From Kofleriaceae bacterium (GTDB lineage: Bacteria > Myxococcota_A > Polyangia > Haliangiales > Haliangiaceae): a DNA stretch of 64,000 nt. A model generated the notes under the pieces. That model did not search any database, was not told the DNA's origin, and was given only the letters and a program-made list of their open reading frames with translations. How positions within the stretch are numbered: position 1 is the stretch's first letter; each line of letters starts with the position of its first letter. Positions 4,363-56,240 of the stretch are shown in pieces. The DNA lies in assembly GCA_015075455.1 (NCBI GenBank), contig JABTUH010000016.1:64001-128000 (forward strand), written 5' to 3'. Position numbers and translations under genes: made by a program.

Positions 4363-6245
<1,883 letters not shown>

Positions 6246-8815: not shown

Positions 8816-8934
8816 CCGCCCATGGTGCGCGAGCCGGCCGCCCCCGTGCAAGCCCGCCGTGCCCCGCCGGGGTCCGCCGCCGCCGTCGTCCCCGCCCCGC
8901 GCGCGCGGCGCGACGGCGGTGGTAGGGTCGCGCG

Positions 8935-10100
8935 GTGGCACGACGTCACGCCCACCGCGCCGGCGACTGGTCGTCGGTGGCGGTGCGCCTCGACGAGATC
9001 ATCAGCGCCCACGGCGGCGCCGATCCGTTCGAGGAGGCGCTCACGCTCCTGGTCGCGCGGCTCGCCCACGAGGCCAGCGGCGGACCGCCGGCCGGGTTCG
9101 TCGGCGGCGCCGCCGGCGCGCCGGCGCGGGTGAACGAGCTGGTCGCGGCGGCGGCGGCGCGGTGGCCGGGCGTCGTCGAGCCCGGCCGCACCACCGGCCT
9201 CGGCGGCGCGGCGCTGGCGCGGTGCGCCGCCGTGCTCGACGGCGTGGCGCTGCTCGGCGACGAGCTGGTCGGCCTCGACGCCGTCTTCGAGCACCTGGTG
9301 GCCCACGTCGCCAAGGGCCAGAAGGGGCAGTTCTTCACGCCCCGCCACGTCATCGCCGAGGTGGTCGCGATGCTGGCGCCGCGGCCGGGCGAGCACGTCG
9401 TCGATCCGGCCTGCGGCTCGGGCGGCTTCCTGTGGCACGCCCTGGCGGCCGCGCCCGGCTGCGTGGCGTGGGGGTTCGACGTCGATCCGCGCGCGGTGCG
9501 GGTGGCGCGAGTCATGCTCGCCGCCCACGGCGCGCCGGTCGGGCGGGTGGCCTGCGTCGACAGCCTGCGCCGGCCGGCGCTCGAGGACCACGCCCGCGGC
9601 CATGGCGCGCCCCGCGGCTTCGACGTCGTCCTGACCAACCCGCCGTTCGCCGGCGACGTCGGCCGCGCCTTCGACGGCGCCTACGAGCTGGCGCGCGGGC
9701 GGGTCGAGCGCGACGTGCTGTTCGTCGAGCGCGTGGTCGAGCTACTGCGCCCGGGCGGGCGCTACGCCATCGTCCTGCCCCACAACAAGGTCGGCGGCGC
9801 GACCTGGAGCCACGTCCGGCGCTGGCTCCTGGCGCGGACCGAGGTGGTGGCGGTGCTCGGGCTCGGCCGCCCCACCTTCCTGCCCCACACCAGCCAGAAG
9901 GCGTGCGTCGTGATCGGCCGGCGGCGCGCCCGCGCCCTGGCGGCGCCGCCCGCTGGCGAGCGGGTGCTGTTCTTCGTCAGCGAGCGCGCCAGCGGGACGC
10001 CCGCGGCATGGCTGGTGCGACGCGAGCGCGCGATCGATCACGACCTGGCGCGGCTGGCCTGGCGGTGCGGGCCTGCTCGCGCGCGGCGGCGCGGGCGGCG
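8935..10100 (+). CDS. N6-adenine DNA methyltransferase, gamma-class (HsdM/TaqI-like); the 3' end is uncertain
   Basis: Motif X/I reads GQFFTPRHVIAEVVAMLAPRPGEHVVDPACGSGGFL and motif IV reads VLTNPPF. Beyond ~10050 the frame degenerates into poly-Arg inside a GC-rich direct-repeat tract (10080-10200). Confidence 0.7.
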
Positions 10101-10439
10101 ACGGCGACGGCGGCGCGGGCGCGGCGACGGCGACGCGGGCGCGGGCGGCGACGGCGGCGCGGTGGCTGGGCGGCGCGCGCCTGCGGCCCGCGCGATGACC
10201 GCGCCCGGGCGCCGCCGACCGCGTGATCACGCGGCGGGTCGGCGAGTCGGCCCCGCGCTGGTGCTGGCCCCGAGCGCTCGACCCGCGGCGCGCGGTGATC
10301 GTGGCCGGCGCCCGCCGCCTCGGCGAGCTGGTGGAGTGGTGAGCGACACCGTCGACGCCCGCGCCTGCCGGCGGACGCGCCGGTGCTGGTGCTCGACACC
10401 GGCACGCCTGGGAGGCTGGTGCAGGCTCCGCCACGCCCG

Positions 10440-11016
10440 GTGACGGGCGCGCGACCTGGGCAGCGCGGCGGCGCCTGGCGCGGGCGACGTCATCATCTCG
10501 CGCCCAGGCTGTACTGCGGCAGGTCGCGCTCGTCGACGACGACCTGTTCGCGCGGGCGCCGGGCGGCAACCTGGTGGTGGCCTCGACCGAGTTCTACGTG
10601 CTGCGGCGGCGAGGGGGCGGCAGCGGCGCGGGCGCCGACCGCACGACCGGCGGGACTGGCGGCAGCCGCGAGGCGAGCGGTGCCGGCGGTGCCGGCGCGG
10701 ATCGCGGTCGGCGCGCGCCGCCGCCCTCGACCCGGCGGGCCTGGTGCCGTACCTGCTGTCGGCGCCGGTGCAGGCCGCGCTCGCCGCCGGCCAGGAGGGC
10801 GGACACCACCCCCGCTTCGAGCGCGCCCAGCTCGAGGACCTGCCGGTGTCCGACGCCCTGGTGCGCCGCGCGGCGGCGATGGCGCGCGCGGTCCGCGACC
10901 AGGCCGCGAGCTTCGGCGCCGCCGTGGCCGGCGGCCGCGCGCTGATCGCCACCGTCGAGCGCGAGCTGGCGCCACCACCGCGGCGACGCCCCACGCCGCG
11001 CCGCTCGACCCGGTAA
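10440..11016 (+). pseudogene. HsdS-like target-recognition-domain remnant, split over at least two frames
   Basis: Frame 1 has GDVIISRPG (cf. the HsdS GDILISRIG motif). Frame 2 continues with VALVDDDLFARAPGGNLVVASTEFYVLRRR (cf. ...ISSNLFVIRP). Frame 1 from 10744 gives LLSAPVQAALAAGQEGGHHPRFERAQLEDLPVSDALVRRAAAMARAVRDQAASFGAAVAGGRALIATVEREL, which resembles the coiled-coil conserved region of S subunits. No single intact ORF spans this. Confidence 0.4.
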
Positions 11017-12333: not shown

Positions 12334-12573
12334 GGCCGCGAGCTGGGCCCGCGAGCCGCCGAGGCCGCGACCTGCCGAGGCCGGGGCGAGCTCCGGTGGC
12401 CCTCCGGGGTGGCCGGATTCCGGCCGGGTGGCCGGATCCCGGCCGGCCTCGCGTCCGGATCTCGGACACCGTAGCCGCAAGCCCGCGAGATCGGTAGCAC
12501 GCCCGCCTGGTCCGGCCCTTGCTCTGCCCCCGCGCGAACCACACCCGCGCCGAGCGCGGAACGGAGAGCGCAC

Positions 12574-15507
12574 ATGGGCTGGACGAACTGGATGACGATG
12601 ACGCTGGTGCTGGCCGCGGTCGCGGGCTGCACCGAGGGAGTGATCGTGGGCGGCGGCGGCGGGTCGCGGTACGACCGCGAGGTCAAGGGCGGCAACCTCC
12701 ACCACGCGGCGGTCGAGGGCGCGAGCCGGACCGACCTCGATCTCGGGCGCGTCCTGGCGAGCGCGCCGGCGCTGGCGCCCGCGGTGGGGCCGCTGGCGGC
12801 GGGTGACTTCACGATCACCACCGCCACCTCGCGCGGGGCGACCGGGCGACCGCTGATCCACGCGATGGCCCAGCAGCACGTCGGCGGCGTGCCCATCGTC
12901 GACAGCCACCTCTACCTGACGGTGGCGCCGGGGCCGGGCCAGGGCGAGGGCCAGCTCGTGGCGTCGAGCTACCGCCTCTTCCACGGCGCCGACGTCGACG
13001 TGACCCCGTCCGTCGATCGCGCCCGGGCCGAGGCCCGGGCCCGCGCGGTGCTGCGCGCCCCGGCCGACGCCGCCGTGCGCGAGGCGCGGCTGGTGATCCG
13101 CGAGCGGAGCGGCGCGCTCGCCCTGGTGTGGGACGTGACCCTCGATGGTCACGACGGCCGCGCCCTGATCCACGCCAGCGGCCCGCGCGCCGGCACCGCC
13201 GACGTGCTCGACGATCGGGTGTACGAGACCAGCGGCACGGTGTCGGCGTGGGTCGCGGTCGGCGGCGCCCCCGGCGCCGGCGGCGAGCCGCGGCTGGTCG
13301 CCCAGGCCGACACGATGGTCCTCGCCGGCGTGGTGTCGACCTCGACCGCCGGCGACGGTCGCTACCTCCTGGCCGCGCCGGCCGGCTCGATCGTGACGAC
13401 GACCGTCGCCGGGCTCGCGGCGCTGGTCACGGACGTCGGCGGGCTCGCGGTCGAGGCCTCGGCCCCGGCCGCGCCGGAGGTCGACCTGACCCTGGGCGGC
13501 GCCAGCGAGCGCGAGCTGGCCATGACCACCGCCTACCACTTCACGACCGCGGCGCGCCGCTTCCTGCTCGCCAACGGCGTCCCCGCCAGCGTGCTGGGCG
13601 CGCCGCTCGCCACCCGGGTCAACCTGGCCTCGACGTGCAACGCCTACTACTCGCCGGCGGGGCGCACGATCAACTTCTTCCGCGCCGGCGGCGGCTGCAA
13701 CAACAGCGCCGAGGCCAGCATCATCGCCCACGAGTACGGCCACTTCGTGGACGACACCTTCGGCGGCATCACCGACGGCGGGCTGAGCGAGGGCTGGGGC
13801 GATCTGCTGGCCTGCTTCCTCCTCCGCGATCCGGTGATCGGCGGCGATCTGTTCCACTCGAGCGGCCAGCTCCGGACCTGCGACAACGACTACCGCTACC
13901 CGCGCAGCGGCCACGACAGCGTCCACGAGCTGGGGCAGGCGTGGTCCGGGTTCGCCTGGCACGCCCGCGCCGGCCTCATGGCCGCGCACGGCGCCGAGGC
14001 CGGCGAGGCCCGCGCCCGCGCCCTGATCATGCCGTCCCTGGTCACCAACGCGCCCGACATCCCGGCCGCGGTGCGCGAGGTCTTCCTGCGCGACGACGAC
14101 GATGGCGACCTGCGCAACGGGACCCCGAACTGGGACGTGCTCCTGGCCGCGGCCGAGCGCCACGGCCTGCGCTTCGCCGTCGACGTCGACCACGGCCCGC
14201 CCGGCGCCGTCACCGATCTGATCGCGACCGCGGTCACCCCCACCACCGTCACCCTGCGCTGGACCGCGCCCGGTGATGACGGCGATCACGGCACCGCCGC
14301 GCGCTACGAGCTGCGCTGGGCGCTCGAGCCCATCGACGAGGCCAGCTTCGCCGCCGCCGCTCACCTGCCGGCCCCGGCGCCGCTGCCGGCGGGTCACCTC
14401 CAGACCACGACCGTGTCGGTGCCGCCGGTCGAGCGGCTCTACCTGGCGCTGCGCGCCATCGACGAGCTCGACCACGCCGGCGCGCTCTCGAACGTGATCG
14501 AGGTCGAGCTGCCGGCGCCCCGGGTGATCTGGAGCGACGGCGCCGAGGCCGGCCTCGGCCCGTGGCAGGCGACCGGGCTGTGGCACGTCAGCGAGCGACG
14601 GGCGGCGGCGGGCCAGCGCGCCTTCCGCTACGGCGACGACGCCACCGGCACCTACGACACGCCCGGCCGGGCCAACCAGGGCGCGCTGCTGTCGCCGATC
14701 ATCGACCTCGACGCGGCCGTCGCGCCCCGCCTGACCTGGCGCGAGCATGTCGACGTCGAGGAGTCGACGACCTACGACCTGCTCCGGGTCGAGGTCTTCG
14801 ACGTCGACGATCCTTCGATCGCGGTCAGCGGCGAGAAGCTCCACGGCCGCACCGCCGGGTTCACGCCGCGCCTCGTCGACCTGAGCGGGCTGGTCGGTCG
14901 GCGGGTCCGGATCCGCCTGTGGTTCGACACCGTCGACGCGGCGATCAACGACGGCGAGGGCTGGTACGTCGACGAGCTGCGCGTGCTCGGCGACCAGGGG
15001 CCGGCGCCGGAGCCGCCCGCCGGCGGCCGCCTCCTCGTCAACGAGCTGCTCGCCGATCCGCCGGCCGGCTACGACGCCAGCGGCGACGGGATCGCCAGCC
15101 CCACCGCCGACGAGTTCGTCGAGCTCGTGAACATCGGCGACCGGCCGCTCGACCTCGGCGGGGCCACCATCACCGACGACGTCGCGGTGCGCGGCACGTT
15201 CCCACCCGGGACCGTGCTGGCCCCGGGCGAGGTCCTGGTCCTGTTCGGCGGCGGCGTGCCGGCGCTGCCCGGCGTCCGCACCATGGTCCTCGGCCCGCTC
15301 GCGCTCAACAACGGCGGCGACACCGTGACCATCCGCGGCGCCGGCGGCGAGGTCCTGGCCCAGCTCGCCTACGGCAGCGCCGCCGGGGACGACCAGTCGC
15401 TCACCCGCGCGGTCGACCACGACCCCGAGGCCCCGCTCGTCAAGCACCGCACGCTCTCGTCCGCCCCGGCCTCACCCGGCCGGCGCGCCACCGACCCCGT
15501 GCCCTGA
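12574..15507 (+). CDS. secreted zinc metalloprotease lipoprotein (gluzincin HExxH...E, M4/M36-like) with an FN3-like segment and a C-terminal lamin-tail domain
   Basis: ATG at 12574, with RBS GGAGAG 8 nt upstream. Lipobox LAAVAGC. The metal site is HEYGHFVDD...SEGWGD. The lamin-tail-domain-like C-terminus reads LLVNELLADP...EFVELVNIGDRPLDLGGATI. Confidence 0.85.
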   Translation: MGWTNWMTMTLVLAAVAGCTEGVIVGGGGGSRYDREVKGGNLHHAAVEGASRTDLDLGRVLASAPALAPAVGPLAAGDFTITTATSRGATGRPLIHAMAQQHVGGVPIVDSHLYLTVAPGPGQGEGQLVASSYRLFHGADVDVTPSVDRARAEARARAVLRAPADAAVREARLVIRERSGALALVWDVTLDGHDGRALIHASGPRAGTADVLDDRVYETSGTVSAWVAVGGAPGAGGEPRLVAQADTMVLAGVVSTSTAGDGRYLLAAPAGSIVTTTVAGLAALVTDVGGLAVEASAPAAPEVDLTLGGASERELAMTTAYHFTTAARRFLLANGVPASVLGAPLATRVNLASTCNAYYSPAGRTINFFRAGGGCNNSAEASIIAHEYGHFVDDTFGGITDGGLSEGWGDLLACFLLRDPVIGGDLFHSSGQLRTCDNDYRYPRSGHDSVHELGQAWSGFAWHARAGLMAAHGAEAGEARARALIMPSLVTNAPDIPAAVREVFLRDDDDGDLRNGTPNWDVLLAAAERHGLRFAVDVDHGPPGAVTDLIATAVTPTTVTLRWTAPGDDGDHGTAARYELRWALEPIDEASFAAAAHLPAPAPLPAGHLQTTTVSVPPVERLYLALRAIDELDHAGALSNVIEVELPAPRVIWSDGAEAGLGPWQATGLWHVSERRAAAGQRAFRYGDDATGTYDTPGRANQGALLSPIIDLDAAVAPRLTWREHVDVEESTTYDLLRVEVFDVDDPSIAVSGEKLHGRTAGFTPRLVDLSGLVGRRVRIRLWFDTVDAAINDGEGWYVDELRVLGDQGPAPEPPAGGRLLVNELLADPPAGYDASGDGIASPTADEFVELVNIGDRPLDLGGATITDDVAVRGTFPPGTVLAPGEVLVLFGGGVPALPGVRTMVLGPLALNNGGDTVTIRGAGGEVLAQLAYGSAAGDDQSLTRAVDHDPEAPLVKHRTLSSAPASPGRRATDPVP

Positions 15508-20200: not shown

Positions 20201-20394
20201 CCATGACCGACGGCTTCCGCCCGCTCAAGAAGCCCATCCAGGATCTCGGCTTCGCCGACGGCCCCGACGTGTGGGCGTGGGACGCCGCCACCGCCAGCTA
20301 CCGCGGCACGGCGCGCGCCGCCGCCGCCGAGCCCGCCGCCACCGCCGAGCCCGCCGCCGACCGCGTGGGCCCGTCCACCGACCTGCTATCCTGA
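17227..20394 (+). CDS. bifunctional protein: N-terminal PhaC-like alpha/beta hydrolase (Ser in the lipase box) fused to an acyl-AMP ligase (FadD/FAAL-like adenylation domain)
   Basis: N-terminal ~400 aa: LLLVPPLMVASEVYDIAPDISSINYLTRAGVDVWLTDFGAP and a GYSQGG nucleophile elbow (PHA-synthase-like; the PhaC lipase box is GxCxGG). C-terminal ~600 aa: AMP-binding motifs (TFFLWKDRAFTYAEAN, YFLGERD..., LVFVSGGAFSAPR-like core, TGD-like DTWFFSGD, GDTIRTAAG). No carrier-protein domain is visible. An ATG at 17227 lies 8 nt after a TATACT element. Alternative in-frame starts: GTG at 17161 (MSRSRSGAPPP...) and ATG at 17326 (MAWQNAIEIVRAGRL...), the latter sitting just before the hydrolase domain. Confidence 0.8.
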   Translation: MSEGPGARSSRRGSATARRRRKVAWAHRLRRVGMAWQNAIEIVRAGRLTAPYGAPFAIAHETPIYKLRHYRADDVPARGAPLLLVPPLMVASEVYDIAPDISSINYLTRAGVDVWLTDFGAPEREAGGMERTLDDHVRAVSDAVDRVRAATGRDVHLAGYSQGGMFAYQVAAFRRSAGLASVITFGSPVDIHRTVPIADQLVERMVAGLQRAVTLPLDHIDGLPGFLTSTGFRLLSARKEIGQLFDFVSKLHDRSALEKREARRLFLGGQGFVAWPGPALRKFIDEIIVANRMTSGGIVIDGHAVTLADISSPILYFLGERDEMGRPAAVRGIRKAVPAVEALYEVPVKAGHFGLVVGSTALAITWPTVVEWIRWRDGDGPPPVRAVPVPTRDAGGAAGRGARDEDDDGRDEADDEADAGVDDDDIEAAFGELQFDLELVQDVIGNTARAVLDRIGDVSTDLGDYLDNLRWQVPRLRRLRNLRDDTAISLGRTLADQARTIPERTFFLWKDRAFTYAEANRRVDAVARGLMQCGVRPGLRVAVLMGGRPSYFSAVTALSRIGAVAVLIAPATPDAALGRAFDVGECEAVIADPELAPRVRAVWAGKLLVLGGAHDARALPAGAVDLEAIDPAAQPPPAWYRPDPGRARDLALVFVSGGAFSAPRASRITNRRWAFSALGAAATCTLSNRDTVYCCLPLHHPTAMLVAAGSALAGGARLALASEFRPDVFWREVRRYGVTVVYYAGELCRPLVLAPPMLGEHNHPIRLFAGSGMRPDLWRKLLDRFGPVGVLEFYASTEASAVLANASGQKVGAVGRPLPGSPELAIAAYDFDADELIRDAAGRLVRARVDEPGMLVTRLDSPRGIADVAHLPPARLLRDAFAPGDTWFFSGDILTIDGDGDYWFVDRWGDTIRTAAGPVTTRRIEDALHGVPAVLACAAVGVTMTGEPGEVPAAAFALTAGAALDLAALSAAVATLPEHMRPRRLRRVEGIPMTDGFRPLKKPIQDLGFADGPDVWAWDAATASYRGTARAAAAEPAATAEPAADRVGPSTDLLS

Positions 20395-20405
20395 GCCGGC
20401 GCCCG

Positions 20406-21245
20406 ATGATCCTGGCCTGCACCGCCTGCTCGCTCCGCCACGATGTCTCCGGGTACGGCGCCGGCCAGCTCTTCCGCTGCCGCTGCGGCCAGGTGCTGGC
20501 CATCGACGCCGCGCCGGCGCAGGCCGGGCTCCTGGCCTGCCCGCGCTGCGGCGCCGGCGTGGCGCCGACCGACCGGGCGTGCGGGCACTGCCAGGCCCCG
20601 CTGCTCCTGCGGAGCTGCCCGCGCTGCCTGGGGCGCGCCTTCCACGAGCACAAGCACTGCCCGGCGTGCGGCACCGCGCTCGACGTCGCCGCGGTCGGCG
20701 AGGCCACCGCCGAGCGGCCGTGTCCACGCTGCCCCGCGCCCATGCACCCGCGCCGCGTCGGCGATCTCGTGATCGACGAGTGCCTGACCTGCCACGGCGT
20801 CTTCCTCGATCACGTCGCGGTCCAGCGGGTGGTGACCGATCGCCAGCAGGCCCGGGCCGAGGCGATCCTGGCCACGGTGCCGCGGGCCGAGGTCGCGCCC
20901 ACCCACGCCGGCGGGCGGATGTACGTGAAGTGCCCGATGTGCGGCACGCTCATGAACCGCAAGCAGTTCAGCGCCGGCTCGGGGGTGATCATCGACGTCT
21001 GCCGCGCCCACGGCGCCTTCTTCGATCCCGGCGAGCTGCCCCACGTCATCACGTTCGTCATGAGCGGGGGCCTCGAGCAGGCGCAGCGGAAGGAGCTCGA
21101 GCGCGAGCGCGCGGCCATCCGGCGCGAGCGCGACAACGCGCAGTTCGCGGCCATGATGGCGGCGCGCTCGTCGACGCGCGCCCACGGCGAGACCCGCGAC
21201 CGCTCGGGCGCGCTGGTCGATCTGCTGCTCGCGCTGTGGCGCTAG
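20406..21245 (+). CDS. zinc-ribbon domain protein (three CxxC...CxxC modules) with a C-terminal charged/coiled-coil region
   Basis: ATG at 20406, 12 nt after the stop of the ligase fusion gene. The modules are CTACS...CRCG, CPRCG...CGHC, CPRC...CPAC, CPRC...CLTCHGVF and CPMCG...CRAHGAFFD. Confidence 0.7.
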   Translation: MILACTACSLRHDVSGYGAGQLFRCRCGQVLAIDAAPAQAGLLACPRCGAGVAPTDRACGHCQAPLLLRSCPRCLGRAFHEHKHCPACGTALDVAAVGEATAERPCPRCPAPMHPRRVGDLVIDECLTCHGVFLDHVAVQRVVTDRQQARAEAILATVPRAEVAPTHAGGRMYVKCPMCGTLMNRKQFSAGSGVIIDVCRAHGAFFDPGELPHVITFVMSGGLEQAQRKELERERAAIRRERDNAQFAAMMAARSSTRAHGETRDRSGALVDLLLALWR

Positions 21246-21333
21246 CGAGGCCTTCGGTGCGCGCCGACGCGTGCGCGCCCGGCCGCGGCGCGAGAGGAAG
21301 GACGCGCGCGGCCATCTGTGTGGTGAGACGGGG

Positions 21334-21405
21334 TGAGGGCGGTAGGACTCGAACCTACAACCAGCGGATTAAGAGTCCGATGCTCTACCATTGAGCTACG
21401 CCCCC
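21334..21405 (-). tRNA. tRNA-Lys (anticodon CTT)
   Basis: A manual cloverleaf fits: GGGGGCG/TA/GCTC-AATGGTA-GAGC/A/TCGGA-CTCTTAA-TCCGC/TGGTT/GTAGG-TTCGAGT-CCTAC/CGCCCTC-A. Length is 72 nt and CCA is not encoded. Confidence 0.85.
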
Positions 21406-21434
21406 GGACTTCTAAGCTATCCTCTTGTTTTCAG

Positions 21435-21508
21435 TGAGCTCGGGGCGACTCGAACGCCCGACCTACGGGTTCGAAGCCCGGCGCTCTATCCAACTGAGCT
21501 ACGAGCCC
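21435..21508 (-). tRNA. tRNA-Arg (anticodon TCG)
   Basis: GGGCTCG/TA/GCTC-AGTTGGATA-GAGC/G/CCGGG-CTTCGAA-CCCGT/AGGTC/GGGCG-TTCGAGT-CGCCC/CGAGCTC-A. The D arm is identical in type to known tRNA-Arg. There is one C:U mismatch at 27:43. Length is 74 nt. Confidence 0.8.
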
Positions 21509-21528
21509 TCGCGACGAGGCCGGCCGGA

Positions 21529-21557
21529 TAGATAGAGAACCCGCCGCGCGGTGTCAA
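21529..21557 (-). promoter_or_regulatory. sigma70-type promoter for the tRNA-Arg/tRNA-Lys operon
   Basis: On the minus strand: TTGACA (21557..21552), a 17-nt spacer, then TATCTA (21534..21529). The -10 lies 20 nt upstream of the tRNA-Arg 5' end. Confidence 0.5.
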
Positions 21558-21841
21558 GGGACCGGCCGCCGAAGTGCAGGCGCACGGCCTGCCGACCGGG
21601 GGATGGCCCCCGGATCGGGGGACGGCGCCTGTGGGTCAGCGCCCACACCGTGAGCATCACCCCACGTTTCGCTGGGGGGGAAGTCACCAGGAAGCGCCTG
21701 ATTTTTCAGGGGTTCGAAGCAGAAAGGGGCTTCAAGAAGCGGCCTGACCGCTATATCATGCTGCCGACATTGCCCGTGAGAGGCACCGCGGTCGCTCGGG
21801 AGGCGACCACGGTGTTCGACCAGACCGGGGAGGCCATCGCC

Positions 21842-24800
21842 GTGTTTAGCAAAGACTCGCGCATCAACATCCTGCTCACCCTCATGTTCCTCGCGCTCTC
21901 CGCGTGCGGCGGCTTCGGCTCCGGCTGCGGCTGCTCGCAGCAGCCCTTGCCCCCGGGAGGACTGCCCAGGGATCAGACGGTGGAAGGCGGCGGCCAGATC
22001 CGCGTCACCCGCGCCGGCTTCGAGAAGCTGACGTCGGTGGTCCCGGCGATCCTCAACGACTCGCTCGGCGGCGGCATGTGCATCGGCCGCACCAGCTTCC
22101 TCGGCGCCGACGTCTGCTACCAGACCACCGGCCCCAACGGGATGTGCGCCCCGGGCTGCTACGTCGCGATCAACGTCACCCAGACCCGGCTCACGGTCAC
22201 CAACCAGAACACGCTCAACGTCTACGTCCGCGCCAACGTCAACACCGCGGTCCGCATCGACCCGCCGCTCTTCAGCGCCTGCACGATGACCGTCACCGCC
22301 AACAACCTGTCGGCGGACCTCGACATCGGCTTCGCCATCGACCCGGCCACCGGCGAGCTGCGCATCCGGCTCAACCGCATCAACGACTACAACATCTCCG
22401 GCGTCAACTTCTCCGGCTGCTCGGTGCTGAGCTGGATCGGCGACCTCGCCGTCAGCCTGCTCGACTCGTTCCTGGGCCGCTTCATCGTCGACCTGCTGAC
22501 CCCGACCATCAACGACCTCATCCAGGGCTTCCTCCCGGACCCGCTCGGCATCGAGGGCATGGTGGACATCGGCCAGCTCATGGCCGGCGTCTCCCCCGGC
22601 ACCGAGGGCTTCATGGAGGCGCGGATGGTGCCCGGCGGCTACGTGCAGCTCGGCGGCGGCGGCATGTCGCTCGGCCTCATCACCGGCCTCAACGCCGACC
22701 AGGATCCGTCGACCCGCACCCCGGCGCTCGACAGCGAGCCGGCGTACTGCGTCCCGCCGCTGCCCGCGCCCAACTTCGCGGCGCCGCCGGCCTCCTTGCC
22801 GGCCAGCTCGCGCGGCACGTTCACCCTCCTGCCCGCCGGCGCGTTCGTCGGCAACCCCGAGCCCGCCGACGATCTGGCCATCGGCATCTCCGAGACCACC
22901 CTCGACCTCGCCGGCCACCACCTCGTGACCTCGGGCGGCATGTGCCTGGGCGTCGGCACCGGCCTCGTCGACCAGCTCCGGCTGGGGACGATCGGCCTGC
23001 TGGTGCCGTCGGTGGGCGAGCTCGGCGACGGCAGCGAGCCGCTGCTCCTGGTCACCCGGCCGCAGCGCGCGATCGACTTCACGATCGGCGACGGCACCGA
23101 GGCGTCACCGGCGATCACGATCCACATCGACGACTTCGAGGTCGACTTCTACGGCTTCGTCTTCGAGCGCTACACCCGCGCCTTCACGATGTCGCTCGAC
23201 CTCAACGTCGGCATCAACCTCGAGTTCATCCAGCAGCCGGGCATGCCGGCGCAGGTGCGGCCCATCCTGGTCGGCCTGACCTCGTCGAACATCGGCATCA
23301 CCGTCCTCAACAACGAGTTCGTGCGCGAGACCCGCGACCAGCTCGAGGCCGTGCTGCCGACGGTGTTCGACCTCGCCCTGCCGCTCCTCGGCAGCGGCAT
23401 CGGCCCCATCGACGTCCCCGACTTCGCCGGCTTCACCCTCAACAACCTGCGGGTGCAGAAGGTCACGACCAGCGAGGACGAGTTCATGGCCATCTACGCG
23501 TCGCTGGGCGCGTCCATGATGATGCGCGACCGGGTCGAGACCTACCCCTCGCTGCAGCCGGTGATCGACGCCCTCGACCGCGAGACCGCGGTCGCGGCCT
23601 GGCCCGACGTGGTCCTGCTCGACCTCGCCCTCGACCCCGGCACCGGCGCCACCGTGGGCGGCACCGGTGCCCGCGCTCGCCTGCGCGCGGTCGACGTGCC
23701 GGCGCCCGAGGACGTGCGCGCCGCGCTGCTCGCCAAGGACCCCACCGGGCTGCCCCACGTCACGATCGACGTCGACACCCACGACGCCCTCGGCCGCCAG
23801 CTCGAGTGGAGCTGGAACCTGAACGGCGGCCTGTTCCGGCCGTTCACCACCGCCGCGCCCCTGGTCATCGCCGACCGCGCCTTCGCCTGGCAGGGCAAGT
23901 ACACGATCGGCCTGACCTCGCGCGTGGTCGGCGACTACCGCACGACCGCGCCCGAGACCGTCGAGGTCCCGGTCGTGATCGACTCGGCGCCGCCGAAGAT
24001 CCACGCCGACCAGGCGCGCTGGCGCGGCACCCGGCTCCACGTGCCGGCCACCGACGCCGTCTACGACGCCGACGAGCTGCAGTGGGCGTGGGGCCGGCCC
24101 GGCGACGACGAGCCGTCGACCGACTGGGCCAAGGACGCGTCGATCGACCGCGCCACCGCCGCCGACCTCTCGCTCGACGACGAGCTCCTGGTGTTCGTCC
24201 GCGATCCCAGCGGCAACGTCGGCCAGGCGCTGGCCAAGAGCGGCTTCCACGGCCAGCCCGGCGAGAGCGGCTGCAACTGCAGCGCGCCCGGCCAGGGTCC
24301 GAGCGCCGGCTCGCTGCTGCTCCTGGCCCTGGTCGGAGCGTGGCTGCTTTTTCGCCGTCGCGCCGCGACCGTCGCCCGGGTCGTCGCGCGCGCTAGCTCG
24401 GGTCGGGCCCTGTCGCAGCTCGCGCTCTTCGTCGGCGTGAGCGTGGCCGCCTCGCTGGTCCCCGGCTGCTCGTGCGGCAACAGCGCCGGCCAGGCCTGCG
24501 AGATCACCGAGGACTGCGCCAACTTCGAGTGTCCGTCGGGCCAGATCGCGATCTGCTTCGAGGGCGAGTGCTTCTGCACCGACGACGTGCCCTACGGCAA
24601 GATCGGCTCGTTCTCCGACGTCGCGGTGGCGCCCAACGAGGACGCCATCGTCAGCGCCTACGCCGCGTTCCACGGCGACCTGGTGGTGGCACGCTTCTCC
24701 GGCGCCGGCCGCATCCCCAACGAGGCCTGGGAGTGGGTCGACGGCGTCCCCGCCGGCCCGGTGGCCCTGCCCGACTCCGACGTCCGCGGCGGCATCCTCG

Positions 24801-25819
24801 AGCCCGGCGACGACGTCGGGCTCTACACCAGCGTCGCGATCGGCGCCGCCGACGTCCCGATGGTCTCGTACCACGCCCGCGAGGACGCCTCGCTCAAGTT
24901 CGCCGCCAAGTACGGCGGGGCCTGGCACAACCACGTCGTCGACTCCGGCACCGGCGACGTCGACCCCGAGATCGGCGGCGAGGCGGCCGGCATGTTCACC
25001 TCGATCAGCCTGGGCAGCGACGGCCGCCCCGGCATCGCCTACATGGCCACGCAGTCGCAGGGCGGCGGCATCGTCACCGCCGAGGTCCGCTTCGCCCAGG
25101 CCACCACCGCCCAGCCCATGAGCTCGGCCGACTGGACCGTCACCGTGCTCGACATGATGACGCTGCCCCCGGCCGATCCCAACGCCGTCGACATCTACCC
25201 GCTGCCGGGCGGGGTCGGCCTGTTCGTCGAGTCGACCCGCGACCTCGACGGCCACCCGGTCGTCGTCTACTACGATCGCCAGAACGGCGACCTCAAGATG
25301 GTGCGCGGCAACGCCACCGGCTTCGCCGCCCCCGTGGTGCTGGCCGGGCAGACCACCGACGACGGCTGGTACCCCTCGGTGTCGGTGGACGCCGCCGGCG
25401 TCCCCCACGTCGCCTTCCAGGGCGCCGACCACGACGACGTCTTCTACCTGAACACCGGGACCATGACCCGCGAGATGGTCGACGACGGCTACCGCATCGT
25501 CGGCACCACCCCCGACGGCCTGCCCAAGCCCGAGTACCACTTCGTCGGCTCCGACACCCAGATCGTCATGACCCCGGCGACGCCGTACGTCATCTACCAG
25601 GACTCGACCACCCACGAACTGCTGGCGGCGTCCAAGAACGGCGACACCTGGCGGCCCGAGCCCATCGCCGGCGCCGAGGCCACCTTCGTCGGCGCCTACG
25701 GCTTCTTCGCGTCGGCGGCGCTCGGCACCTCCCAGATCACGGTCTCGACCTGGGTCCTCCACCAGGCGCTCAACGACAACTGGGTCGAGGTCTTCCGCCT
25801 GCCGATCGGCCCGCAGTAG
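21842..25819 (+). CDS. very large lipoprotein ORF; the N-terminal ~840 aa domain ends in a MYXO-CTERM-like motif and is followed in-frame by a second hydrophobic segment and a ~470 aa beta-propeller-like domain (possibly two genes fused or read through)
   Basis: GTG at 21842 is preceded by GGGGAGG 8 nt upstream. The lipoprotein signal is MFSKDSRINILLTLMFLALSAC|GG. At ~24260-24350 the motif GCNCSAPGQGPSAGSLLLLALVGAWLLFRRR appears (Cys motif, TM helix, Arg tail). There is no stop until 25819. A second hydrophobic stretch LSQLALFVGVSVAASLVPGCSC has no in-frame ATG/GTG/TTG before it. Confidence 0.6.
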   Translation: MFSKDSRINILLTLMFLALSACGGFGSGCGCSQQPLPPGGLPRDQTVEGGGQIRVTRAGFEKLTSVVPAILNDSLGGGMCIGRTSFLGADVCYQTTGPNGMCAPGCYVAINVTQTRLTVTNQNTLNVYVRANVNTAVRIDPPLFSACTMTVTANNLSADLDIGFAIDPATGELRIRLNRINDYNISGVNFSGCSVLSWIGDLAVSLLDSFLGRFIVDLLTPTINDLIQGFLPDPLGIEGMVDIGQLMAGVSPGTEGFMEARMVPGGYVQLGGGGMSLGLITGLNADQDPSTRTPALDSEPAYCVPPLPAPNFAAPPASLPASSRGTFTLLPAGAFVGNPEPADDLAIGISETTLDLAGHHLVTSGGMCLGVGTGLVDQLRLGTIGLLVPSVGELGDGSEPLLLVTRPQRAIDFTIGDGTEASPAITIHIDDFEVDFYGFVFERYTRAFTMSLDLNVGINLEFIQQPGMPAQVRPILVGLTSSNIGITVLNNEFVRETRDQLEAVLPTVFDLALPLLGSGIGPIDVPDFAGFTLNNLRVQKVTTSEDEFMAIYASLGASMMMRDRVETYPSLQPVIDALDRETAVAAWPDVVLLDLALDPGTGATVGGTGARARLRAVDVPAPEDVRAALLAKDPTGLPHVTIDVDTHDALGRQLEWSWNLNGGLFRPFTTAAPLVIADRAFAWQGKYTIGLTSRVVGDYRTTAPETVEVPVVIDSAPPKIHADQARWRGTRLHVPATDAVYDADELQWAWGRPGDDEPSTDWAKDASIDRATAADLSLDDELLVFVRDPSGNVGQALAKSGFHGQPGESGCNCSAPGQGPSAGSLLLLALVGAWLLFRRRAATVARVVARASSGRALSQLALFVGVSVAASLVPGCSCGNSAGQACEITEDCANFECPSGQIAICFEGECFCTDDVPYGKIGSFSDVAVAPNEDAIVSAYAAFHGDLVVARFSGAGRIPNEAWEWVDGVPAGPVALPDSDVRGGILEPGDDVGLYTSVAIGAADVPMVSYHAREDASLKFAAKYGGAWHNHVVDSGTGDVDPEIGGEAAGMFTSISLGSDGRPGIAYMATQSQGGGIVTAEVRFAQATTAQPMSSADWTVTVLDMMTLPPADPNAVDIYPLPGGVGLFVESTRDLDGHPVVVYYDRQNGDLKMVRGNATGFAAPVVLAGQTTDDGWYPSVSVDAAGVPHVAFQGADHDDVFYLNTGTMTREMVDDGYRIVGTTPDGLPKPEYHFVGSDTQIVMTPATPYVIYQDSTTHELLAASKNGDTWRPEPIAGAEATFVGAYGFFASAALGTSQITVSTWVLHQALNDNWVEVFRLPIGPQ

Positions 25820-25867: not shown

Positions 25868-26554
<687 letters not shown>

Positions 26555-55579: not shown

Positions 55580-56122
55580 TCAGTCCGACAGCTCGCCGGT
55601 CCAGTACAGGTAGTCGCGCCAGGCGTCGGGCACCGACCGCAGGCTGACCCGGATCGTCACCGCCGGCACCCAGTCGGGCTGGACCGGCTGCGCGCGCAGC
55701 GCCATGCCGGCCTGGCGCGGCGTGCGCCCGCCCTTCCTGCGGTTGCAGTCGTGGCACGCCGTGACGATGTTCGTCCACTCGGTGCGGCCCCCCTGCGAGC
55801 GCGGCACGACGTGATCGTAGGTGAGCTCGTCGACGCCCAGCTTGTCGCCGCAGTACTGGCAGGCGTAGCCATCGCGGGCGTAGATGTTGACCCGCGAGAA
55901 CTTCACCGGCCGGTGGTGGCGGCGGAAGGCGCGCAGGAGCCGGACCACGCTCGGGATCTTGATGATGAACGTCACCGAGCGGACGGCGTCGCCGTACTCC
56001 TCCACCACCTCGACCTTGCCGAGGAACAGGAGCGTGATCGCTCGCTGCCACGAGATGACCTTGATGGGCTCGTAGCTCTGCGACAGGAGAAGGGTCTTGT
56101 GACCCGGTGCCGTGGCCTCCAT
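55580..56122 (-). CDS. HNH endonuclease family protein (small standalone HNH)
   Basis: ATG at 56122 (alternative at 56146). The N-terminal segment is [26 protein letters not shown]. The HNH core is CQYCG...[28 protein letters not shown]. Confidence 0.8.
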
Positions 56123-56223
56123 CGGGAACAGTCCAGACGATAGCATCTCCGTCCGACGACGCACCGCGCCGCCGATCACGGCCAGGACGCCGGCGGGGAC
56201 GGCACGACGCGACGACGCCGAAG

Positions 56224-56240
56224 TTGAAAGCGGCTTTCAA
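56224..56240. promoter_or_regulatory. perfect inverted repeat TTGAAAG-CGG-CTTTCAA upstream of feoA (candidate operator, e.g. a Fur-type regulator)
   Basis: It has 7-bp arms and a 3-bp spacer, and sits 18 bp upstream of the feoA GTG start. An AT-rich element TGTGATAGCG follows. Confidence 0.4.

Follow-up and report, generated by a model that had tools for sequence, protein, structure and literature searches.

The window, by which we mean the whole 64-kb stretch of DNA from a Kofleriaceae bacterium that was analysed, has a G+C content of about 75% and carries on its forward strand, at 21842-25819, an unbroken open reading frame (ORF) that begins with GTG, ends with its stop codon and translates into 1325 amino acids, including the segment GESGCNCSAPGQGPSAGSLLLLALVGAWLLFRRRAATVARVVARASSGRALSQLALFVGVSVAASLVPGCSCG. 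A sequence-only reading had pointed out that this ORF contains an internal motif of the MYXO-CTERM type, a sorting signal that normally stands at the C-terminus, and then runs on into a second signal-like segment and a separate propeller-like domain. We confirmed that this observation is real. On sequence grounds, the junction between the two parts of the protein is a hairpin in which one Arg cluster is shared by a sorting tag of the C-terminal kind and a lipoprotein-type signal peptide of the N-terminal kind.

The start codon of the precursor is that of the family consensus MFxxxxRxNxxLS...ACG, and the frame is open further upstream as a long ORF (21551-25819) that extends 97 codons beyond this start. 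The G+C content at third codon positions (GC3) is 0.97 for the gene. Throughout the junction it lies between 0.83 and 1.00 in the precursor frame and is low in the other two frames, so the coding frame is continuous there. A codon-by-codon inspection found no in-frame ATG, GTG or TTG from 24362 to 24434; the earliest is the GTG at 24437, within the second hydrophobic segment, which bears out the claim that no start codon precedes that segment. At a G+C content of 72%, the length of a stop-free ORF is by itself weak evidence, and the weight comes from conservation.

A conserved membrane-proximal signature, FHGQPGESGCNC (24245-24280), precedes the first helix of the hairpin; its F, H, G, G, C and C are invariant alignment columns, and so are two further Cys after the second hydrophobic segment. 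The internal MYXO-CTERM tag (amino acids 808-840, 24263-24361) consists of the Cys motif, a first transmembrane helix (TM1, 24302-24352) and RRR (24353-24361). The full protein scored 29.4 bits against TIGR03901 over these residues, compared with the curated cutoff of 20, and the excised segment alone scored 36.5 bits and also passed the older model TIGR03382. The claim of an internal MYXO-CTERM thus holds: the segment matches the curated hidden Markov model, contrary to one outcome that would have told against it, and the ORF continues without a stop. When 125 hairpin segments of the family were searched individually, 101 matched TIGR03901 at E <= 0.01. TM1 is SAGSLLLLALVGAWLLF, a helix free of charge and of Pro, and RRR follows as the Arg cluster. 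The Cys signature is GCNC here, with the G and both Cys invariant in 81 aligned sequences, and its variants among homologs are CNC (47), CSC (37), CAC (16) and CGC (8). The tag is not at the extreme C-terminus, since 485 residues lie downstream of it. No further MYXO-CTERM-like segment was found elsewhere in the 64-kb window.

After RRR comes an Arg-rich loop, AATVARVVARASSGR (24362-24406), which also provides the n-region of the second signal. Across 120 homologs this loop is 7-46 amino acids long and has a net charge of +5 to +13; K/R account for 940 of its 2327 residues (40%) and D/E for 13. This is what the positive-inside rule requires of a cytoplasmic loop. Since the loop is basic and the C part has eight invariant Cys, both domains are expected outside the cytoplasm, and a topology with the Arg loop inside and both domains outside is well supported by these sequence features. 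The second hydrophobic segment (TM2 or h-region, 24407-24469) is ALSQLALFVGVSVAAS followed by LVPG-C, where the Cys (24467-24469) is residue 876, far from the N-terminal position that a lipoprotein signal would normally occupy. The loop supplies the charged n-region and TM2 the uncharged h-region of such a signal. All 115 close homologs scanned have Pro at -2 and Cys at +3; G/A at -1 and Cys at +1 were required by the search pattern itself. Before the Cys, close homologs have 17-20 uncharged residues in a row and distant members 11-25.

The short motifs are the best-kept parts of the hairpin. The mean column identity is 0.73 for FHG..GC.C, 0.79 for RRR and 0.75 for LVPGCSCG, compared with 0.57-0.59 for the N and C domains (0.57 for the N domain), 0.41 for TM1, 0.31 for TM2 and 0.29, the lowest value, for the loop. 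As judged from the alignment, this pattern fits sorting signals and not a structural helical hairpin.

The fused arrangement is conserved widely. A scan with one genome per species found relatives in 209 genomes, and the best 80 of these were examined. The taxonomic titles of 73 of the best 80 read Kofleriaceae, Haliangiales, Myxococcales, Myxococcota or delta proteobacteria, and the remaining seven metagenome-assembled genomes (MAGs) are labelled Deltaproteobacteria, Proteobacteria or Actinomycetes; the host of the window itself belongs to the Myxococcota, as expected for a MYXO-CTERM protein. One of these 80 loci is 100% identical at the protein level. A pattern search found the whole hairpin in one frame at 75/80 loci, in ORFs of about 1320-1440 codons; of the five loci that the pattern missed, four are also fused and have slightly variant motifs, and one is interrupted by a contig end. 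The junction is accordingly in frame at 79/79 informative species-level loci, which come from many assemblers. One of them (L009, the MAG 'PRO4') is a separate assembly with 99.05% DNA identity to the window and an identical junction. Searching with the protein turned up more than 120 homologs, 1290-1360 residues long, with a query coverage of 97-100% and identity down to 49%, in which the layout is constant: FHG..GC.C and a hydrophobic helix, then the loop rich in Arg, then another hydrophobic segment and P[GA]C.C. Without exception, the indels in the loop among these homologs are whole codons.

An exhaustive search for the wider family among representatives of clusters at 50% identity gave 371 of them at E <= 1e-30. 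The internal hairpin is present in 85 of the 149 new cluster representatives listed, in proteins of about 830-1570 residues with identity down to about 31%. The loop of these distant fused members is often only RRR or RRRR, and in 37/85 it has at most six residues. Their second segments end in textbook lipoboxes (LAAC, LLGC, LAGC and LSAC); the core of the PROSITE PS51257-type lipobox, {DERK}(6)-[LIVMFWSTAG](2)-[LIVMFYSTAGCQ]-[AGS]-C, is matched by 62/85, and in 27/85 the uncharged run before the Cys is 11-15 residues, a length more typical of the h-region of a signal peptide. Because the distant members carry canonical lipoboxes and short h-regions, we read the second segment as a lipoprotein-type signal peptide. 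The description of this segment as signal-like was right as far as it went, although in distant relatives the segment is a canonical lipoprotein signal peptide and more than a resemblance. Outside this family, the same hairpin was not found in a scan of 0.8 Mb of related DNA, which is a biased sample.

Relatives in which the two parts are separate show what the halves of the hairpin are when they stand alone. P0171, which is present on two independent contigs, is a stand-alone N-type protein with a true C-terminal MYXO-CTERM, and its gene is followed by a convergent dCTP deaminase gene. P0193 and P0169 are N-type proteins with the same kind of ending, and their next genes are on the opposite strand; P0153 also ends in this way, with the same PFHGQAGASGCSC motif, and the gene after it encodes an unrelated cytoplasmic protein. 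No C-type gene lies downstream of any of these four. P0172-P0174 and others likewise end in a true C-terminal MYXO-CTERM.

In other genomes the two parts are adjacent genes. L004, an Illumina assembly, encodes an 874-aa N-type protein that ends ...GCGCHLGERHSGGGAGAAAMVLGLLALAVRRGRRGPRG before its stop codon, a TAG that overlaps the GTG with which the gene for a 489-aa C-type protein starts; this protein begins MASRAREAALGVLLLLGAAGC-QHD. In L006 the two genes overlap in GTGA, and the C-type protein begins MKRAGSAVLFALAVAGAAC-SSN. A third pair, on a JGI contig syntenic with L006, has genes for 813 and 474 aa that lie 17 nt apart, and it lends support to the split in L006. The split C-type proteins match the PROSITE lipobox core with a signal that is truly N-terminal, and the second segment of the fused proteins aligns with this signal. 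An apparent split in L005 was rejected, as it is a frameshift in a nanopore-based assembly and the gene is fused in the correct frame. L005 (at about 5900-6010) and L006 (7500-7540) belong to the same nanopore metagenome assembly (np1212 names) and each show a frameshift inside the family, and gene calls from that assembly call for caution. The contig of L008 begins within the hairpin and is uninformative. As to surroundings, two of the split pairs (JGI 3300047160 and L006 9805-11552) adjoin MotA/ExbB-ExbD genes, and about 2 kb downstream of the pair on JGI 3300047160 there is an Rce1-like (PF02517) CPBP protease gene, a candidate myxosortase neighbour.

Where split pairs could be read as DNA (L004 and L006), the two ORFs overlap by 4-8 nt without sharing a frame, and the fusion therefore needed a frame change and not the mere loss of a stop codon, one of the explanations offered by the sequence-only reading. 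The closest relatives of the unfused proteins comprise both fused and unfused forms, and fusion or fission has thus occurred more than once. The suggestions of a natural two-TM hairpin protein and of a gene fusion are each right in part: the protein is an old, conserved fusion with a hairpin, and unfused relatives exist.

The remainder of the precursor is made up of recognizable modules. Its N-terminus is a lipoprotein-type signal peptide (21842-21907), VFSKDSRINILLTLMFLALSA followed by Cys22, and 105/115 close homologs have a PROSITE-like lipobox core within the first 60 aa. GGFGSGCGC (21908-21934) directly follows this lipobox Cys; its GCGC is like the MYXO-CTERM signature and is kept in the family consensus ACGxxGxGCGC. 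As GCGC also follows the N-terminal lipobox, the precursor has three membrane-proximal Cys clusters. The NCBIfam model NF058595 ('lipo-invert') matched this N-terminal region at chance level (E 1.5); among the hairpin segments of the family it matched 13/125 (best E 2.5e-5).

The AlphaFold2 models, built with 81-sequence alignments, were confident. The N domain (21977-23530) is predicted to adopt a two-lobed, two-barrel tubular fold like that of BPI, LBP and CETP, the tubular lipid-binding (TULIP) fold. In a Pfam search of the whole protein at E <= 10 the N domain did not match LBP_BPI_CETP, and no family was found except for a chance match to Nodulin_late. Two Ig/FN3-like beta-sandwich modules (23669-24241) separate this domain from the hairpin. 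On the other side of the hairpin is a Cys-rich module, CSCGNSAGQACEITEDCANFECPSGQIAICFEGECFC (24467-24586), with eight invariant Cys in alignment A1 (columns C77, C79, C87, C93, C98, C106, C111 and C113); with these Cys just after the second hydrophobic segment, the C part is likely extracytoplasmic. The model of the C part has a mean predicted local distance difference test (pLDDT) score of 89.7 and comprises two to three helices, the small Cys-rich module and a beta-propeller. The propeller (24599-25816) has a pLDDT above 90 over most of its length, in agreement with the claim of a separate propeller-like domain, which is thus modelled with high confidence for about 445 downstream residues. 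Its Foldseek matches in the PDB are PLL/PHL lectins and sialidases at E of about 1e-12 to 1e-9, and they are generic.

We consider it probable that this gene makes one fused precursor in which the two signals stand back to back and which is cleaved to give two anchored proteins. The N-terminal lipoprotein signal would start Sec export of the N part, that is, the BPI/CETP-like and FN3-like domains. The internal MYXO-CTERM (GC.C, TM1 and RRR) would then halt transfer and anchor the chain, its Arg cluster remaining on the cytoplasmic side. The Arg-rich loop would next serve as the n-region of the TM2 signal that ends in LVPG-C, and this signal would restart export to bring out the C part with its Cys-rich module and beta-propeller. 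A myxosortase, which is a CPBP intramembrane protease, would cut after the lipidated Cys of GC.C, and Lgt and LspA would process Cys876 after TM2. The TM1-loop-TM2 hairpin would thereby be excised, and a single translation product would give two mature proteins, each with its own lipid anchor.

Several points weigh against this proposal. We infer the cleavage at two sites, by myxosortase and LspA, whereas the motifs, their conservation, the positive-inside topology and the homology to true terminal signals can be read from the sequences themselves. Among the ORFs scanned in the 64-kb window, none encodes a CPBP/Rce1-like (PF02517) protein such as MrtX, MrtC or MrtP, and the cognate myxosortase was assumed from the phylum-wide pattern for this reason. 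The S-L-V-P-G-C of the window fails the PROSITE core, which excludes Pro at -2; none of the 115 close homologs in the window's clade matches it, and Pro occurs at -2 in just 1/83 candidate N-terminal lipoprotein signals from the 0.8 Mb of related DNA. In this clade, where every homolog scanned has that Pro, LspA may process the site differently or no longer at all. That the fusion has been kept for so long might also point to a use of the covalent link itself. As for the split pairs, L006 was counted as supportive only, since its assembly is nanopore-based and has a G5 run at the junction, and the JGI pair is known at gene level only.

The strongest alternative, which we regard as unlikely though well worth weighing, is a permanent two-helix anchor. 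The hairpin would remain uncut or be cut on one side only, both domains would be held in the periplasm at the inner membrane, and the flanking Cys motifs would form disulfides or bind metal close to the membrane. The invariant Pro and the failed lipobox core in the window's clade agree with such an anchor, as do an uncharged run in TM2 that is long enough in this clade to span the bilayer, the great evolutionary stability of the fusion, and the CxC motifs that flank both helices, with a further GCGC after the N-terminal signal. However, the helices and the loop are the least conserved parts and have no conserved polar or packing motifs, and the loop varies in length from 3 to 46 aa. The 27 distant members with 11-15 uncharged residues also have a textbook lipobox, and the same motifs act as terminal signals in unfused relatives.

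The hairpin also has an unusual codon composition, which bears on a further alternative. Just 24 of the 1326 codons of the gene end in A or T (98% end in G or C), and seven of these lie within amino acids 819-854 (24296-24406), where about 0.65 would be expected; six more are in codons 2-48, near the N-terminal signal. Signal peptides have been reported to show clusters of rare codons, and the hairpin therefore resembles a signal peptide at the codon level as well. The sole T5 run of the gene (24348-24352) lies in CTG CTT TTT CGC, which contains the only CTT codon and one of the two TTT codons of the gene; these two adjacent codons encode the last two residues of TM1. Their T-endings are kept in 9/11 and 10/11 orthologs of the clade (64-81% amino acid identity), compared with 0-5 of 11 for most other A/T-ending codons. 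In the -1 frame, a TAG (24394-24396) follows 15 codons after the run, so that the -1 reading is ...LLF SPSRRDRRPGRRAR and then a stop. This stop is retained in relatives through GCT AGC, GTT AGC, CGT AGC, CCT GAG and CGT GAT; the change of GCT to GTT alters the amino acid, keeps the T and leaves the -1 stop intact. In other clades GTT, CCT or CGT precedes TTT AGC, giving TTT-TAG directly in the -1 frame. T/A runs of at least four in the short segment are found at 20/75 loci, where about 3.4 would be expected, and at 17 of these 20 a -1 stop comes before TM2 ends. Family-wide there is no excess of -1 stops in the loop (22/75, where the background is 0.23). The real stop and start of L004 lie in the same GTG GCT AGC.

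Sequences around the run were examined as well. An RNA hairpin of 11 bp is predicted 6 nt after the run (24359-24390), with 93.6% of cells paired over 10 sequences. Two of its pairs show compensatory changes, a weak signal given that 37/500 shuffles reach the covariation score, and it is not more stable than shuffled sequences (z-score +0.77). Upstream, GGAG (24335-24338), which is Shine-Dalgarno-like and contains the rare codon GGA, lies 9 nt before the run; its A-ending codon is kept in 4/11 orthologs of the clade, all of them the closest relatives. In the zero frame, CTG CTT TTT allows perfect re-pairing of the Phe tRNA alone and does not fit the X XXY YYZ heptamer.

The run may be a relic of an ancestral gene overlap, a place of rare-codon pausing with an 'ambush' stop, or a dnaX-like frameshift site. 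The last of these, a programmed -1 frameshift at CUU UUU C with dnaX-like geometry, could come in addition to cleavage of the precursor or instead of it, and we think it rather improbable. Most ribosomes would make the fused precursor, and a fraction would slip at the run, terminate at the -1 TAG and yield an N-only protein with a genuine C-terminal MYXO-CTERM ending in ...AWLLFSPSRRDRRPGRRAR. In its favour are the uniqueness of the T5 run and its codons in a gene with so few A/T-ending codons, the retention of their T-endings in nine to ten of the 11 orthologs when most A/T-ending codons are lost, the survival of the -1 stop through at least five codon pairs, the excess of T/A runs accompanied by -1 stops, the direct TTT-TAG of other clades and the conserved RNA hairpin that starts 6 nt downstream. 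However, 55/75 loci lack the run and the family as a whole has no excess of -1 stops; the heptamer is non-canonical, the RNA hairpin is no more stable than its shuffles and its covariation is weak, GGAG is restricted to the closest relatives, and the sequences compared are related by phylogeny. The same features could be left over from an ancestral stop/start overlap, as in L004, or reflect pausing at rare codons, as has been reported in signal peptides. Slightly more doubtful still is an extension of this idea in which the junction is a regulated decision point, where the T-run and the -1 stop select either the fused precursor or an N-only BPI-like protein; such a switch could also act through homopolymer indels in the population.

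It is highly improbable that two products arise by internal initiation of translation of the C domain within the long ORF: an in-frame ATG, GTG or TTG does occur somewhere in the loop at 46/75 loci, but 29/75, the window included, have none, the positions of the others are unconserved, and ribosomes from upstream would read through for lack of a stop. We give practically no credence to the reading that the locus holds two genes which only look joined because of faulty assembly or sequencing or because a stop was lately lost by pseudogenisation, since, although long ORFs arise readily at 72% G+C and split relatives exist, the separate assembly with 99.05% identity has the same junction, all 79 informative loci from varied species and assemblers are fused in frame, so that no ortholog at these loci showed a stop after the RRR tail, the loop indels are multiples of three, GC3 remains in frame, and the window offers no start codon for a separate C-domain gene.

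The surroundings of the precursor gene show no functional link to it. A PhoU-family gene (25868-26554) lies downstream on the same strand, 48 nt after the precursor stop, and is probably unrelated because it is missing at the matching place in the relative L001. An AMP-binding/hydrolase gene lies upstream, and synteny with a relative is partial only. The 1.4 kb or so between that upstream gene and the precursor (20394-21842) contains a sole ORF of 271 aa (20579-21394), which is otherwise unsupported and has no family match. No type II secretion system (T2SS) or Lol genes were found in the 64-kb window. At 12475-15507 there is a gene for a large secreted-looking protein in which a Lamin-tail and an FN3 domain were found together with a weak match to M36 peptidases; its C-terminus lacks a MYXO-CTERM, although the precursor was weakly matched, through its tag, by the NCBIfam 'myxosortase-dependent M36' model. 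An N6 DNA methylase (Eco57I-like) gene (8926-10443) and an HNH endonuclease gene (55580-56236) are unrelated to the finding.

The LPXTG, PEP-CTERM, PGF-CTERM and MYXO-CTERM signals have been defined and annotated as terminal, and the present family has long kept such a tag in an internal position. For annotators, this means that a MYXO-CTERM match far from the C-terminus need not be an error. If both sites are processed, the gene would be a natural bacterial polyprotein that delivers two lipid-anchored envelope proteins at a fixed 1:1 stoichiometry from one Sec substrate, and it would provide a size-shift reporter for myxosortase and LspA, as HVO_0405 was for archaeosortase. The conserved T-run and -1 stop add a testable recoding hypothesis; if it were true, recoding would choose between two protein-sorting fates and would be layered on a polyprotein excised by two intramembrane proteases. 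A 2019 survey of TULIP proteins reported only three bacterial families (PMC6791001), and the 'hypothetical' 1300-aa proteins of Kofleriaceae appear to contain a full BPI/CETP-like lipid-binding module.

The closest known system is the MYXO-CTERM/myxosortase (MrtX) system of Myxococcota (TIGR03901; 10.1101/2023.06.07.544157; PMC11980579). MrtX cleaves MYXO-CTERM after the lipidated Cys, as was shown for TraA, where cleavage depends on the Cys and is associated with surface display (PMC11980579). The precursor shares with this system the tripartite signal (GC.C, an uncharged Pro-free TM helix and an Arg cluster), passes the curated model, comes from a myxococcotal host and has unfused relatives with a true C-terminal tag (P0171, P0153, P0172-P0174, P0193 and the N-types of L004 and L006). 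It differs in that its tag is internal with 485 residues after it, is coupled to a second export signal and is accompanied by an N-terminal lipobox. An internal MYXO-CTERM has been described in MXAN_5598 of Myxococcus xanthus, where it was attributed to a fusion of two genes and processing of the N part was proposed; TraA/TraB were cited as an analogous overlapping pair (PMC11980579). Compared by description, MXAN_5598 resembles our precursor in having an internal MYXO-CTERM and an N part proposed to be processed and surface-anchored. However, it is a single noted case from an adhesin plus outer-membrane beta-barrel/OmpA family, and its description includes neither a second signal peptide nor a shared Arg cluster nor a split/fused series.

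In archaea, HVO_0405 of Haloferax volcanii is a fusion of two formerly independent genes whose central PGF-CTERM-like signal is cleaved in vivo by the archaeosortase ArtA (PMC7157517). That enzyme and that motif are different from those considered here, the fusion is described as strain-specific (PMC7157517), compared with a fusion conserved over a lineage at family level or above in our case, and the text available for HVO_0405 does not mention a lipoprotein-type signal after the tripartite one (PMC7157517). With bacterial type II lipoprotein signals (Lgt and LspA), the second segment has in common a charged n-region, an h-region and an invariant Cys after G/A. The signal is canonical in 62/85 distant fused relatives and in the split C-type proteins; here it is internal and, in the window's clade, has an invariant Pro at -2 (LVPG-C).

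The Bradyrhizobium FbcH precursor of cytochromes b and c1 is one product that is cut at internal signal sequences. Viral glycoprotein precursors are likewise polyproteins split at internal signal peptides (PMC7926653). In both, one product threads the membrane and is cut into separate mature proteins, as we propose for the precursor, although by signal peptidase I-type cleavage, and neither is known to combine a C-terminal sorting tag with a lipoprotein signal. The -1 frameshift of E. coli dnaX, which yields tau and gamma, uses a homopolymeric slippery run, a stop in the -1 frame and a downstream hairpin. The junction is like dnaX in its run with a nearby -1 stop, a weakly supported downstream hairpin and the truncated second product that these would give, a resemblance that serves as a lead; it differs in that its site is non-canonical and restricted to certain clades.

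We found no paper on polyproteins with an internal lipoprotein signal or lipobox, or on this family. An internal MYXO-CTERM created by gene fusion, with possible processing, is already in the literature for one protein (PMC11980579). What is new, by the sequence comparisons, is the coupling of the tag to a lipoprotein-type signal through a shared Arg cluster and the conservation of this arrangement over a large superfamily with a series of fused, split and stand-alone forms. New as well are the BPI/CETP-like fold of the cargo and the conserved T-run with its -1 stop.

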